Positions 1-22,863 of a stretch of DNA of 24,338 bases are shown one piece after another. The notes under the pieces are model-generated. The model ran no database searches. It had not been told where the DNA came from and worked only from the letters and a program-made list of their open reading frames with translations. Position 1 is the first letter of the stretch, and each line of letters starts with the position of its first letter. A program made the position numbers and the translations under genes. The DNA comes from Candidatus Woesearchaeota archaeon (GTDB lineage Archaea > Nanobdellota > Nanobdellia > Pacearchaeales > GW2011-AR1), in the NCBI GenBank assembly GCA_964372435.1, contig CAYJRI010000001.1, positions 8,813 to 33,150 on the forward strand, given 5' to 3'.

Positions 1-37
1 GTTTAAATCCAAACTGTTGAATGATTCTTTTTCCCAT
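1..37 (-). other. Start of an rpl2-like ORF (MGKRIIQQ) that diverges after codon 8 and runs off the window edge
   Basis: ATG 1 nt after the rpl23 stop, translating MGKRIIQQFGFK. The first 8 residues match the archaeal uL2 N-terminus at the syntenic position; the expected basic R/A-R-G-x-G continuation is absent. Confidence 0.55.
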
Positions 38-38
38 A

Positions 39-278
39 TTACATGACCCCCAATTTCGTCGCAAGATCAAGTGCCTTGCCCTTCTTTAAAGTGAGGTATG
101 CATATTTTTGGTTATTGCGAATAAACGTTTTGATAGATGAGACTTGAACATCAAAAAGTTTCTCAAATGCTGCTCGAATTTCCTTCTTCGAGTACTTTCT
201 ATCAACTGCTAAAAGCAGCTTATTTTCTCGTTCAATAAATTTCAATGCTTTTTCTGTAGCAACATATCTAAAATTCAT
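39..278 (-). CDS. rpl23: 50S ribosomal protein L23 (uL23)
   Basis: TEKA...IE.ENKL...V, KYAYLTL and ATKLG motifs; follows rpl4. Confidence 0.95.
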   Translation of the reverse strand: MNFRYVATEKALKFIERENKLLLAVDRKYSKKEIRAAFEKLFDVQVSSIKTFIRNNQKYAYLTLKKGKALDLATKLGVM

Positions 279-1066
279 TTGCCAAACCTCCTTGCCAGAT
301 CCTGAATTGCAGCCTCAGTGTAGAGTGTCAATCTTCCAAGAGACCCCTGAGCGAAATCAGAAATTTTCACCGATGATGCTTTCCGGACATCAATCTGATG
401 GAATGCAACACGCTCTTGATCTCCAATAACCATCAACAATCCAGCATTTTCCTTATACCTTCTGCCCCGCAGTTTTCCTTTTCCCGCACGAATACTCTTT
501 TCCTTCAACGCGCGTGTATAAAAGACTCCTAAAATTTTCTCAAGAGCTTTTTTGAATTCTCTATGCTTTATGCCAGCAATTTTGCCCTCAACAACAAGAG
601 GCAGCTTCACTTGAGGGGGAACAGACCCATATCTCTTCTTGAGATAATCGAGCTGTGCAGTTGCATTCATCGCACTTCTCAAGGCAAGTTTCATTTCTTT
701 CTTATTCACCTTTTTCTTCCTCAAGAAAGCCAGAATTTTTGGAGGATGTGCCCTCCTTCCCTTCCGCGCAGAAGCAATTTCAGCACCAATCCAATAAAAT
801 TGATCCCCTCTCCTCCACATGACCTTTCGTGGCACCCTTGATATTCCCTTCCCATAAGCAGTTTTCCATTTTCTCCTCGAATGCCGAATATTTCCAGAAG
901 CAGATGCCTGCTTTCCAGCCCTCAAAAAAGGAGCATAGGGTTGTTTTTCCTTGAGAATCTCAACCACTCTCTGTACGATATCTTCTCTCACTTCAGAAGA
1001 AAAACAAGACGGCAACTCAATCTCTTTCACTTTCTTTCCCTCAAGGTCGAGAACATCTGCTTTCAT
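275..1066 (-). CDS. rpl4: 50S ribosomal protein L4 (uL4), archaeal type
   Basis: G.G.SRVPR, GRRAHPPK and GRLTLYTE motifs; ATGA overlap with rpl23. Confidence 0.96.
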   Translation of the reverse strand: MKADVLDLEGKKVKEIELPSCFSSEVREDIVQRVVEILKEKQPYAPFLRAGKQASASGNIRHSRRKWKTAYGKGISRVPRKVMWRRGDQFYWIGAEIASARKGRRAHPPKILAFLRKKKVNKKEMKLALRSAMNATAQLDYLKKRYGSVPPQVKLPLVVEGKIAGIKHREFKKALEKILGVFYTRALKEKSIRAGKGKLRGRRYKENAGLLMVIGDQERVAFHQIDVRKASSVKISDFAQGSLGRLTLYTEAAIQDLARRFGK

Positions 1067-2040
1067 CGTAACTCCAAAAATTCAAAATTTTTTTTCTTTG
1101 CTTTTTTTGTAGGCCGTAAAGGCCAAGTAAGAAGCAAAGCTCGTTTGTGTGGGCCTTGTAAACTTCCTCGTAAAATAAGATAATCTGTCCGGAGATTTCC
1201 ATAGTGGGGGAAGCCCCCAGGTGGAGTGATGTCTTTTTCATGCGCATTTGCAAGAGCAAGAATTTTTTGATTATAGGTGATTCTTGCAAACATGCCAAGT
1301 TGACCAGCTTGAGCCACACGAAAGGTTACACGCGCAGGATGCCAAGGCCCTAAGGAACCAGGACGTCTTACTCCTTTTTCACTTTTATGGCCTTTCAATC
1401 CAAGGCCAAAGCGCTGGACAGGTCCTGCAAGTCCCTTCCCTTTTGTCAGCCCACGAGCATCAACAAGCATCCCAGGAGCAAATACATCTTTGATAGAGAG
1501 CTCCTTGTTCCAATATTCCTGCACAAAATTGAATTTATTTTTCAAATCCCCTGCAAGGGCAATTTCTGCAATGTCTGGAGTCTTTTTCACAGCAGTAGCT
1601 TTAACAACAGAATATACCAGAACACGTAGATCATCATACGCCTCTAAAGAAATATGCTCAAGAGAAGAGATCTTGCCTGGTAATTTTACTTTTTTCTTCA
1701 ATTCTTTATCACCCTGATTCATAAAAGAGGCCACCACTTTTTTATCTTTATAAAAGCGAACAGCCAGGATCTTAAGAGGAGGGCATTCGAGAATCGTAAC
1801 AGGCACAATAATTTTTTTATCCTTCGTTAAAGAGTGTGGTGTAACATCTTTCACAAAAGCACTTTTCATCCCAACTTTATAACCCAAGAATCCAAGGAGA
1901 TGTTGAGCCTGTCCCTGAAGAGAAGGATGAGACTTGGAGAAGAAAATAGCATTCCAGTTCACACTAGGAATTGATTTCTTTGCCCTTTTCCTCGGCCAAA
2001 ATTGAAGCGACCCGCTTCGGGGAAAGCTTGCCTTTGCCAT
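1063..2040 (-). CDS. rpl3: 50S ribosomal protein L3 (uL3), archaeal type
   Basis: PRSGSLQFWPRKRA, GYKVGM, TKGKG..GPVQRFG, GSLGPWHP and AGQLG motifs. Confidence 0.97.
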   Translation of the reverse strand: MAKASFPRSGSLQFWPRKRAKKSIPSVNWNAIFFSKSHPSLQGQAQHLLGFLGYKVGMKSAFVKDVTPHSLTKDKKIIVPVTILECPPLKILAVRFYKDKKVVASFMNQGDKELKKKVKLPGKISSLEHISLEAYDDLRVLVYSVVKATAVKKTPDIAEIALAGDLKNKFNFVQEYWNKELSIKDVFAPGMLVDARGLTKGKGLAGPVQRFGLGLKGHKSEKGVRRPGSLGPWHPARVTFRVAQAGQLGMFARITYNQKILALANAHEKDITPPGGFPHYGNLRTDYLILRGSLQGPHKRALLLTWPLRPTKKAKKKNFEFLELR

Positions 2041-2165
2041 ACGTTAATCTGGAATGAGATGTTTATCATTTTATCACGATAAATCCAGGTAATGAAACTG
2101 GTTTTACCGATCTCAGAATACTTCTGATCAGCAGATGCTACACTCTAGAAAGGGCAATTTATAAA
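2041..2165 (-). promoter_or_regulatory. rpl3 operon promoter (TTTATA at 2165-2160) and ~95-nt hairpin-rich 5' leader
   Basis: gaaaagcTTTATAAA BRE/TATA. Stems TCAGAA/TTCTGA (2113-2127), GGTAA/TTACC (2088-2108), TTTATC/GATAAA (2070-2083) and CTGGA/TCCAG (2049-2088). Confidence 0.55.
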
Positions 2166-2249
2166 GCTTTTCCTCTTTATCATTACCCTTCATCAAAAAA
2201 CAACAAAGAATTCCTCTAAACTTGATTCTTGATCTTCCTAAACAACTTT

Positions 2250-21123: not shown

Positions 21124-21204
21124 ATTTGAGCCATAATTTATTTCTCGTGACTATTTACTTTTCACCATACTTAACTTTAAAAATACATCCCCCTTCTTTT
21201 AGAA

Positions 21205-22302
21205 ATGGCAGAGATTTACAAAAGAGATGCTCTAGACATCCCAGAGGAAACTCGGGCTTTGGATAAAGAACTCGAGGAGATCATTAAGAAACAAGCTGCG
21301 AAAATAAAGGTTGTCGGCATTGGCGGAGGAGGCGGAAACACCTTGAGCAGAATGCGGGAGATTGGCATTAAAGGTGGAGAAATGATAGCTGTCAATACCG
21401 ATGCTCAAGATCTTCTCTATTCGAATGCTGACTATAAGATTCTTATCGGCAAGGAGCTAACCCAGGGCCTTGGCGCAGGTTCAAACCCAAAAATTGGAGA
21501 AGAAGCTGCAAAAGAATCTGAATCCGAGATCAAGAAGAGACTTGCTGGCTGCGATATGATCTTTATTACCTGCGGCCTTGGAGGTGGAACAGGAACAGGA
21601 GCAGCTCCTGTTATTGCAGACATCGCAAAAAAACTTGGCGCTCTCACGATTGGTGTCGTAACCATGCCGTTCACCATCGAAGGAAAGAAAAGAATTGAGA
21701 ATGCAATCTACGGTCTTGAGCGCATGGAGTCCATTGTTGACACACTCATTGTCATTCCCAACGATAAGCTCCTTGAAATTGCCCCAGAATTGCCTCTTCA
21801 CACAGCATTCAAGGTTGCAGACGAAATTCTCACCAATTCAGTCAAAGGAATCACAGAACTTGTCACAAAGGCAGGCCTGGTCAATCTTGATTTTGCCGAC
21901 ATTAAAGCAGTCATGAAAGACGGAGGCGTCTCTCTCATAGGATTAGGAGAGTCAGACACAGACGAGAGAGCAACAGCCGCAGTGGAGAAGGCATTACAAA
22001 ATCCTCTCCTTGACGTAGACATCTCTCAAGCAACAGGAGCTCTCGTAAACATTATTGGAGGCCCTGATCTCAGTCTCGACGAAGCAAGAAAAATTATTGA
22101 GCAGATTGGAAATAAATTAAGCGAGGATGCAAAAATGATTTGGGGAGCCCAGATCTCAGAAGACATGGAAAAATCCATTCGCGTACTCCTCATTATCACA
22201 GGCGTTAGGAGTAATCAAATTCTCGGTTCAAGGGCAGAGATTCCTGATAAGAAGCAGAAAGAGATCGAGCAGGAGCTGGGAATACGATTCTTAGAGGAGT
22301 AG
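21205..22302 (+). CDS. ftsZ: Cell division protein FtsZ
   Basis: GGGGGN, NTDAQDL, GGGTGTG and NLDFAD motifs; ftsZ-secE-spt5-rpl11 synteny. Confidence 0.98.
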   Translation: MAEIYKRDALDIPEETRALDKELEEIIKKQAAKIKVVGIGGGGGNTLSRMREIGIKGGEMIAVNTDAQDLLYSNADYKILIGKELTQGLGAGSNPKIGEEAAKESESEIKKRLAGCDMIFITCGLGGGTGTGAAPVIADIAKKLGALTIGVVTMPFTIEGKKRIENAIYGLERMESIVDTLIVIPNDKLLEIAPELPLHTAFKVADEILTNSVKGITELVTKAGLVNLDFADIKAVMKDGGVSLIGLGESDTDERATAAVEKALQNPLLDVDISQATGALVNIIGGPDLSLDEARKIIEQIGNKLSEDAKMIWGAQISEDMEKSIRVLLIITGVRSNQILGSRAEIPDKKQKEIEQELGIRFLEE

Positions 22303-22332
22303 ATTTAAAAACATCTTTTCTTTGGTGAAATC

Positions 22333-22500
22333 ATGTTCAATCTCAAAACCTTCTATGAGAAATGCGTAAGAGTCTGGCATCTCTTGAAAAAACCAACTAC
22401 CCATGAGTTCAAATCCATCTCAAAAATCTCAGCTTTTGGAGTAGGTCTCATTGGCATTCTCGGCTTTGCGATAGCCCTTGTTATGAACATTTTCGTTTAG
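22333..22500 (+). CDS. secE: Protein translocase SecE/Sec61-gamma (missing from the ORF track)
   Basis: Manual translation MFNLKTFYEKCVRVWHLLKKPTTHEFKSISKISAFGVGLIGILGFAIALVMNIFV; KP..EF and G..GF motifs; synteny. Confidence 0.92.
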   Translation: MFNLKTFYEKCVRVWHLLKKPTTHEFKSISKISAFGVGLIGILGFAIALVMNIFV

Positions 22501-22690
22501 TCCAAGATTTTTATTCTTCTCGGATGCAAAACAAAGAGGTGTAATCCGCTTGACGCATGGGAAAAGCAACAGGCAATATTTCTAAGCATCGTAGAAAACC
22601 ACTCGACCAAAAGATTAATAAAGACCGCTTTCCCTCAAAAAGCATCTGCTTCTCTTAATCTTTAGGAGTAGAGGAAACTCAATAGCGAAA

Positions 22691-22863
22691 ATGATTTTTG
22701 TTATGAACACAAGAGTAAATAAGGAAGAAAGAAAAGAAAGAGCATGATTTTTGTTATGAACACAAGAGTAAATAAGGAAGAAAGAAAAGAAAGAGCATGA
22801 TTTTTGTTATGAACATTACATTAAATAAGGAAGAAAGAAAAGAAAGAGCATGATTTTTGTTAT
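22691..22863 (+). repeat. 53-bp tandem repeat, three copies plus the first 14 nt of spt5
   Basis: Units at 22691, 22744 and 22797; units 1 and 2 identical, unit 3 differs only in a 7-nt patch; each begins ATGATTTTTGTTAT, as does spt5 at 22850. Confidence 0.95.

Follow-up and report, generated by a model that had tools for sequence, protein, structure and literature searches.

Short tandem duplications are known from several systems. Bacterial variable-number tandem repeats (VNTRs) and minisatellites arise by tandem duplication and change by slipped-strand events, and yeast rad27 (FEN1) mutants show tandemly duplicated segments that are tens of bases long, cover a broad size range and have short direct repeats at their flanks. 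In S. pombe, microhomology-mediated tandem duplications (MTDs) are local, head-to-tail, genome-wide and reversible (PMC8639346). The tandem repeats of Borgs are perfect, recent, genome-specific and of local origin, and they are intergenic or start within gene ends (PMC9879509). Here we analysed a stretch of 24,338 nt from a Candidatus Woesearchaeota archaeon (hereafter the window; positions 8813-33150 of contig C1 of genome G000), in which a preliminary description had noticed copies of gene termini one repeat unit away from the real ones and had tentatively attributed them to an element that replaces gene starts. The observation holds and extends beyond the window, leaving an unusual duplication signature of sharply defined size. 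The proposed origin as scars of endonuclease cassettes is largely refuted as a general cause and is kept for a single tRNA-Arg locus. A literature search for a 50-nt duplication signature in DPANN or other archaea returned nothing relevant.

Like bacterial VNTRs, these duplications include intergenic tandem arrays of variable copy number, some of which were left unresolved by the assembler; they differ from them by a sharp unit length common to unrelated sequences and by the existence of a class, called A-B-A below, in which two copies of a gene end flank an unrelated segment. With the rad27 signature they share tens-of-bases tandem duplications across the genome, whereas the Fen1 gene of this genome looks intact. 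As in the S. pombe MTDs, the copies are local, head-to-tail, genome-wide, young, probably reversible and seen where selection tolerates them (PMC8639346). Unlike in MTDs, however, most junctions lack microhomology, the lengths are of ~45-60 nt and do not fall off with distance, and the excess is found in one lineage. The nearest archaeal parallel is provided by the Borg repeats, which are also absent from related genomes and of unexplained mechanism (PMC9879509). The Borg examples considered have ~18-21-nt units, repeated many times and strongly biased towards A, and some half of them are located in frame within open reading frames (ORFs), whereas the arrays described here are mostly made of two copies of 45-57-nt units, without A bias and almost never inside genes.

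The assembled genome amounts to 1.01 Mb in 150 contigs (71% complete, 39.5% GC). In the window, exact repeats of at least 10 nt at a spacing of 48-63 nt occur seven times, against a mean of 0.6 and a maximum of 2 in 30 block shuffles, and the neighbouring spacing classes contain one or two such repeats each. The same size class dominates the whole genome. Repeated 12-mers concentrate at spacings of 43-60 nt (~2,700 of the ~4,400 found within 300 nt), and Tandem Repeats Finder (TRF) reported 53 tandem arrays with periods of 40-62 nt. Most of these arrays consist of two exact copies, and some have 2.3-3.3 copies with 89-99% identity. Exact full duplications number 38 at periods of 45-57 nt, with only five between 20 and 39 nt, and the lengths drop off sharply below ~43-45 nt, a lower edge that is not technical. 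Copies of the first eight codons of a gene were found 5' of its start in 13 cases (none in the control), 12 of them at a distance of 43-61 nt. These 12-mer, TRF and first-eight-codon counts establish that the duplication of gene ends at one unit's distance is genome-wide, as had been anticipated from the window, and the comparison with shuffled controls shows a clear enrichment.

To read ancestral states we used the metagenome contig L059, whose Spt5 is 82% identical and which is syntenic with window positions 13087-24045, and L060, whose Spt5 is 86% identical; an exact-protein search of Spt5 among public contigs gave no match. Our sample of relatives also included five genomes of the same family (706 kb), in which a single comparable array was found, against ~36 expected at the density of this genome. 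Identity within the arrays ranges from 100%, the most common case, down to 89%, to which must be added the decayed array at the S2P gene. Two protein-coding loci of the window display the tandem form:

22691..22863, plus strand: spt5 tandem array, 53-nt units x 3.3, 96% matches, TRF score 318, ending on the spt5 start
22850..23332, plus strand: spt5 gene (NGN domain; Pfam Spt5-NGN, E = 1.2e-13)
19476..19636, minus strand: decayed tandem array of three units (54/52/55 nt) in front of the S2P/M50 gene
18036..19475, minus strand: site-2 protease (S2P) gene (Peptidase_M50 + PDZ; Pfam, E = 2.2e-23)

Each spt5 unit extends from an ATG over 17 codons up to a TGA that overlaps the next ATG. Comparison with the genes of relatives showed that the unit is made of the first 51 nt of the gene itself and 2 further nt; spt5 is present as a single copy devoid of array in both L059 and L060. 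The hexanucleotide ATGATT recurs 51 nt apart at the founding event. The repeat unit has L059-like codons (AAT AAG GAA), and it is the gene copy of G000 that has changed (AAC AAG GAG). In front of S2P, each unit begins with a near-copy of the gene start, and the units are homologous along their length (pairwise p = 0.001-0.003 versus shuffles). The gap upstream of S2P is 251 nt long in the window versus 77 nt in L059, which has ~174 nt less and no array. The gene-start copies reported earlier at three times 53 nt for spt5 and at 55/52/54 nt for S2P were thus both recovered, as arrays whose copies align over the whole unit; the same holds for the 53 arrays genome-wide. At spt5 and S2P, the unit is local sequence that is single-copy in the relatives L059 and L060, and so are both tRNA-Leu ends.

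We assigned the arrays to position classes by collapsing each of them in silico and calling ORFs, using random 56-nt segments as the null. No more than 6 of the 53 arrays are inside genes, where 83% would be expected at random; 19 are intergenic, 14 are at a stop, 10 at a start and 4 at both. The few interior events keep the frame (51 nt x 3), adjoin doubtful start calls or fall within a tRNA. Outside gene interiors, the class proportions fit the null and hence the space available. Since gene interiors are nearly free of events in a genome that is roughly 89% coding, the survivors straddle gene starts, stops or tRNA ends, or are intergenic. Gene starts are not preferred, and the duplications are probably filtered by selection: where the copied tract spans a gene end, the gene itself stays complete and an orphan terminus is left at a distance of one unit. 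Targeting of promoters or of pre-initiation complexes was rejected, as events also occur between convergent genes and the neighbour-orientation classes (30/6/3 observed versus 23/9/6.5 expected) show no significant bias.

The second class, A-B-A, comprises ~20-25 loci at which an exact copy of 14-30 nt of a gene or tRNA end (A) occurs at a spacing of 44-63 nt, with an unrelated segment (B) of 21-47 nt in between. In contrast to the tandem arrays, the copies do not align over a whole unit at the tRNA-Leu 5' and 3' ends, at rpl2 or in ~20 other A-B-A cases. In the window, the class includes the tRNA-Leu and rpl2 orphans listed here with their surroundings:

14973..15105, minus strand: tRNA-Leu(CAA) with a ~50-nt intron after position 37 (Rfam tRNA, 42.7 bits)
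15150..15174, minus strand: orphan copy of the tRNA-Leu 5' end (positions -8 to +17; 22/25 identical), with the real 5' end 61 nt further downstream
14907..14927, minus strand: orphan copy that covers the 3' end of tRNA-Leu and 12 nt of trailer, located 54 nt downstream and absent in L059
15114..15149, minus strand: hairpin cassette of 36 nt (TAGGAAACCAAGGTTTCCTGACGC + TTCACCTTCCTT) between the tRNA-Leu 5' copies
14..37, minus strand: orphan rpl2 start (MGKRIIQQ; C1 8632 versus 8693, 20/24 nt, 8/8 aa)
16507..16516, plus strand: 10-nt match to the 3' end of 5S rRNA, 51 nt downstream (probably chance)

Both tRNA-Leu copies described earlier withstood comparison with 2000 shuffles, none of which reached the score of the 5' orphan and two of which reached that of the 3' copy (14/16 in local alignment, 17/21 or 81% over the repeat family). 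In L059, the tRNA-Leu intron is conserved and neither orphan copy is present. The hairpin cassette is found elsewhere in the genome, whole before tRNA-Leu(GAG) on C23, beside a class II tRNA on C39, where it is interrupted by an insertion in the loop, and in a diverged form on C80. The C23 locus (G000:C23:8294-8440) also harbours an exact 17/17 copy of the tRNA start 63 nt upstream. In the tRNA-Leu leaders, the sole TATA-like box lies upstream of the orphan copy, and for this reason both pre-tRNAs should carry a leader able to compete for the acceptor 3' strand. A perfect array on C52 (G000:C52:4765-4923; 57-nt unit x 2.8, 100% identity), made of the last 35 nt of tRNA-Val and 22 nt of trailer, is a young counterpart of the tRNA-Leu 3' orphan.

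The real rpl2 start is outside the window, 61 nt from the orphan and past a 100-N scaffold gap at the left edge. Identical stretches of 55 nt border this gap on both sides (window positions 1-55 and G000:C1:8658-8812), which represents a k=55 overlap; the rpl2 start that looks broken at the edge of the window therefore joins up with the real rpl2 across the gap. The rpl2 copy, previously considered probable, was confirmed. The four differences between the orphan and the real start are all synonymous (GGA/GGC, AGA/CGT, ATC/ATT), a pattern that would be unexpected if the orphan were drifting freely; at the distance of the family, synonymous sites are saturated. Two other copies of the preliminary description fared less well. 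The 3' copy of 5S rRNA (at 51-52 nt) is a bare 10-mer whose score is reached by 36 of 2000 shuffles (uncorrected); it is probably due to chance, because the spacer that contains it is as long as that of the relative (55 versus 58 nt in L059). The weak rpl40e copy at 55 nt was not located.

Taken together, we consider it probable that the duplicated gene ends are the products of a lineage-specific and still active local process that adds ~45-60 nt beside its template. The tract gained in each event, with a median length of about 52 nt, would lie immediately next to the sequence from which it is copied. In one form, the whole tract would be copied, generating a blunt tandem duplication; in the other, which would correspond to A-B-A, 14-30 nt would be copied from the neighbouring sequence and the remainder, B, would be unrelated. 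It is strongly indicated by spt5 and S2P that repeated events build arrays and that old copies decay. As to the reaction itself, the tract might result from the fill-in or repair of two strand breaks staggered by ~52 bp, about five helical turns, or alternatively from strand transfer by a putative integrase-like activity with no cargo or a short cargo. We favour such routes because microhomologies are few, the units are not prone to form hairpins and the length is sharp, and we rank classical replication slippage and flap ligation below them. More tentatively, one may envision a DPANN lineage endowed with an undescribed activity that opens the strands ~52 bp apart, with fill-in yielding cargo-free or short-cargo duplications and the occasional capture of a larger segment, such as the LAGLIDADG gene at tRNA-Arg; we hold this broader proposal to be rather unlikely in its entirety.

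Several candidate routes were rejected. A site-specific nuclease with a boundary motif finds no motif, as the unit boundaries display only a weak T-richness at the first four positions. A reverse-transcriptase route finds no RVT_1 match in the genome, which is 71% complete. Off-target spacer integration of the Cas1 type finds no Cas1 match in this incomplete genome either, and the A lengths vary from 14 to 30 nt while the tails of the S2P units share homology, unlike spacers. For the B segments, templating from nearby sequence in either orientation was dismissed as no source was found, and decay from flank copies was dismissed as 20 of 24 cases lack similarity.

A number of points weigh against a single local duplication process. 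In 20 of the 24 A-B-A cases, A is exact and B resembles neither flank, even in gapped alignments, so that plain duplication followed by uniform decay does not explain this class. Apart from the tRNA-Leu hairpin cassette, each B segment occurs only once in the genome, and A-B-A and tandem arrays are treated as one process because of their shared spacing only. No candidate enzyme has emerged: Fen1 is present, and neither Cas1 nor a reverse transcriptase was found in this genome, which is 71% complete. The upper length edge, at 57-60 nt, is close to the assembly k-mer size of 55 and may be partly technical; eight exact arrays adjoin 100-N gaps and several contigs end within arrays, and copy numbers may be partly shaped by k=55. 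The relatives belong to the same family or, for a closer one, are represented by a single 20-kb contig, which bounds the age of onset poorly. Finally, the gene calls are our own greedy ORF calls rather than those of a trained gene finder.

Among the other explanations, the one that survives best, although we regard it as doubtful, is replication-based: the copies would arise by slippage or template switching between short repeats, or by ligation of unprocessed Okazaki flaps, with the length reflecting flap or primer size. The tandem, local and mostly very young copies do resemble the reversible S. pombe MTDs (PMC8639346), the founding event at spt5 has the 6-nt ATGATT repeat 51 nt apart, and some events show an extra match of 3-10 nt. 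However, in 19 of ~29 two-copy events the match beyond one period is limited to 0-2 nt, which is near chance, and direct repeats of ~4 nt or more at both ends are not a feature of the junctions, spt5 being the exception; the larger extra matches mostly correspond to partial third copies or adjoin N gaps. The sharp lower length edge is also difficult to reconcile with slippage, which favours short distances, and A-B-A loci with unrelated B segments would not be produced. Slippage driven by hairpins was rejected, as the units are no more structured than control segments, and so was a loss of Fen1, for which a full-length gene is present.

Somewhat less probable still is the view that A-B-A loci are target-site duplications of miniature mobile inserts, the tandem copies being outcomes of that reaction in which no cargo was carried or the insert was later lost. 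Elements of the IS1634/IS1549 type and miniature inverted-repeat transposable elements (MITEs) generate long target-site duplications of variable length. In a similar manner, A-B-A leaves the target gene intact, and the tRNA-Leu cassette is palindromic. A 25-nt repeat brackets this cassette of 36-38 nt, which has related copies at three other places (C23, C39 and C80) and is absent from L059, and a 15-nt repeat surrounds the 1.1-kb cassette at tRNA-Arg described below. Nevertheless, a repeated family with defined ends is limited to the tRNA-Leu cassette: at least 20 B segments are unique in the genome and form weak hairpins, and in contrast with IS1634/IS1549 and MITEs most inserts are unique 21-47-nt segments or absent, and no matching transposase was found. 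A constant spacing would furthermore demand that the repeats get shorter as the cargo grows. TnpB-type proteins, reverse transcriptases and Cas1 gave no match in the 71%-complete genome, in which the sole transposase found is of the Y1 (IS200-type) family; DDE families were not searched. Y1 transposases make no target duplication.

The Y1 (IS200/RAYT-type) gene is located at C11 14862-15212, on a contig that begins with modules of a dispersed family. This mosaic family consists of ~50-65-nt modules whose cores are palindromic (e.g. ACCCAACCCTAAAGGGTTGGGT, CCACACACTAAAGTGTGTGG) and which frequently sit at contig ends, as at window positions 24285-24338, i.e. the end of C1, and on at least 20 other contigs (examples are C129 1-1270, C41 7675-7919, C31 7390-7630 and C11 1-483). 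The idea that these dispersed hairpin modules are bordered by long target duplications was rejected, as none was seen, which also argues against the mobile-insert explanation.

That the arrays are selected regulatory devices, acting as coupled upstream ORF chains, multiplied promoters or leader decoys in tRNA processing, appears improbable as a general explanation. It would account for the spt5 units, which form ATGA-coupled 18-codon ORFs ending on the ATG of the gene, for the heads of the S2P units being better kept than their tails, and for the 95% identity between the leaders of the two tRNA-Leu genes. Yet most arrays consist of arbitrary sequence in two exact copies, whether at stops, starts or intergenic sites, and the close relatives lack arrays. 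Function may arise later at single loci, which leaves the genome-wide size class unexplained. Upstream of the S2P array, we identified a copy of a module that recurs in the genome:

19640..19705, minus strand: promoter/leader-like module copy

Its motif, TATACCTC(N)TTGAAG with GTATA(T)AAA upstream, is found on C1, C4, C10, C12, C33, C116 and C120, and the module (GTATATAAA..CTATACCTC..GAAAAATGTTGAAGGTGAAAATTTTAACTTGT) is conserved in front of unrelated genes, at C4 4548, C10 9027/9080, C12 14565/14615, C33 6769, C116 635 and C120 643/700. In C10, C12 and C120, it is itself tandemly duplicated.

The preliminary description had proposed that homing-endonuclease cassettes enter gene starts at a depth of 12-20 nt, bring a promoter and a recoded start and then lose their ORF, so that the old start and the promoter stay behind as a scar, with arrays built from the scars of serial invasion. 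Free-standing homing endonuclease genes carrying a replacement gene segment are known from fungal mitochondria, and one locus of the window fits this description:

13121..14155, minus strand: free-standing LAGLIDADG ORF (Pfam LAGLIDADG_3) inside the 5' part of tRNA-Arg
13085..13160, minus strand: intact tRNA-Arg(CCT) (ARAGORN and Rfam, 67.3 bits)
14201..14215, minus strand: orphan tRNA-Arg positions 1-15, behind the ancestral promoter

The final codons of the LAGLIDADG ORF run into tRNA-Arg, and its GC content is low (0.288 versus about 40%). The orphan aligns with the 5' end of the L059 tRNA-Arg and the TTTTAAA...TTTCTTG region upstream of it. In L059, tRNA-Arg is 126 nt from a PIN gene and represents the empty site; tRNA-Arg is the only locus for which both empty and filled alleles were found. 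The orphan acceptor strand pairs better with the 3' strand of tRNA-Arg than the new 5' segment does. As in the fungal systems, a fresh copy of the first 15 nt of the tRNA comes after the LAGLIDADG cassette, the old one being orphaned. Judging from the alignments, the cassette appears to carry a replacement tRNA 5' segment, and the model holds at this one locus. The 15-nt repeat has a true spacing of ~1055 nt; the 60 nt on which this locus had been placed in the common size class is the distance from the orphan to the endonuclease ATG. An HNH gene, the sole HNH match in the assembly, adjoins the cassette between tRNA-Gly and tRNA-Arg (window 12473-13024, minus strand).

Beyond tRNA-Arg, the synonymous differences at rpl2 and the proximity of the HNH gene to tRNA-Arg and tRNA-Gly could also be cited in favour of the model, which we nonetheless consider very improbable as the general cause. 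Unlike the fungal case, which has its counterpart here at one locus, the other loci lack an endonuclease in the genome or in relatives. No endonuclease ORF was recognised at spt5, S2P or tRNA-Leu in this genome, L059 or L060, and in 27 relatives the secE-spt5 gap is short or occupied by other ORFs, the four largest of which matched no endonuclease family in Pfam, two of them having no match at all. The arrays are whole-length tandem copies of local sequence, the spt5 unit being the beginning of the gene itself. Of the three outcomes that the preliminary description would have taken as refuting its model, two were thus obtained, namely units that align over their whole length and relatives in which no endonuclease ORF was recognised at these positions. 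In addition, the TATA-like box interpreted as an imported promoter at spt5 corresponds to Asn-Lys codons of the gene. Stops and intergenic sites are affected as often as starts, so the preference for gene starts expected of homing endonucleases is not seen. The assembled genome contains just two free-standing LAGLIDADG genes and one HNH gene, the second LAGLIDADG gene has no flanking repeat, and most B segments are unique and bear no ORF remnant. We also observed LAGLIDADG domains in frames of 615-1639 aa on C80, C20, C35, C26, C81, C30 and C124; these domains probably belong to inteins of large proteins, and seven such loci are a high number for a genome of 1 Mb.

The last explanation to consider is that overlapping contig ends near k=55 were joined unmerged, creating false tandem copies. 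The assembly is a k=55 de Bruijn product with five 100-N gaps bounded by identical 55-mers on both sides, contig ends share 55-mers, the periods cluster slightly under k and, as mentioned, eight exact arrays adjoin gaps. We therefore aligned independent Logan k=31 contigs from four runs of two studies to contig C12, which carries four exact duplications. These contigs stop exactly 30 nt inside the repeat borders (4005, 5252, 5305, 12225 and 14589), as expected of true repeats, since a de Bruijn graph breaks at such places; one contig of the second study spans a copy junction, and none among the four runs omits a repeat unit on C12. A two-copy array with a period shorter than 55 contains no 55-mer twice, which means that the words across its junction must be present in the reads. 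With branch points at exact repeat borders in both studies, periods that range from 43 to 60 rather than being constant at 55, gene interiors avoided by 89% of the arrays, and arrays with 89-99% identity, three copies or the diverged S2P and spt5 units, which overlap joins cannot make, an assembly artefact is hardly credible and we consider it excluded.

Apart from the loci discussed above, the window encodes aIF5A, FtsZ, RNA polymerase subunit N, an Rpr2-like protein and ribosomal protein L4, next to the housekeeping Spt5-NGN and M50 site-2 protease genes; its RNA genes are those of 5S rRNA, tRNA-Gly, tRNA-Arg, tRNA-Ala and the intron-bearing tRNA-Leu(CAA). Its endonuclease genes are the free-standing LAGLIDADG gene and the HNH gene. 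A small ORF at 22333-22500 resembles the secE gene that adjoins spt5 in relatives and is on these grounds considered SecE-like. Elsewhere in the genome, a perfect tandem repeat of 39 nt x 8.4 (G000:C42:7544-7871), with 13 codons per unit, does not belong to the 45-60-nt class.

A measurable signature thus replaces the endonuclease-scar story: ~50 young duplications per Mb, of one narrow length, mostly without microhomology and absent in relatives. So sharp a preference in length implies that replication, repair or integration relies on a molecular ruler, one not known for archaea, and the signature can guide the search for it. For annotation, it serves as a warning: such duplications can give rise to false starts, 'split' tRNAs and broken contigs in DPANN assemblies. 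For the organisms themselves, it means that compact genomes acquire, as by-products, new 5' leaders, chains of upstream ORFs, spare promoters and orphan tRNA ends.

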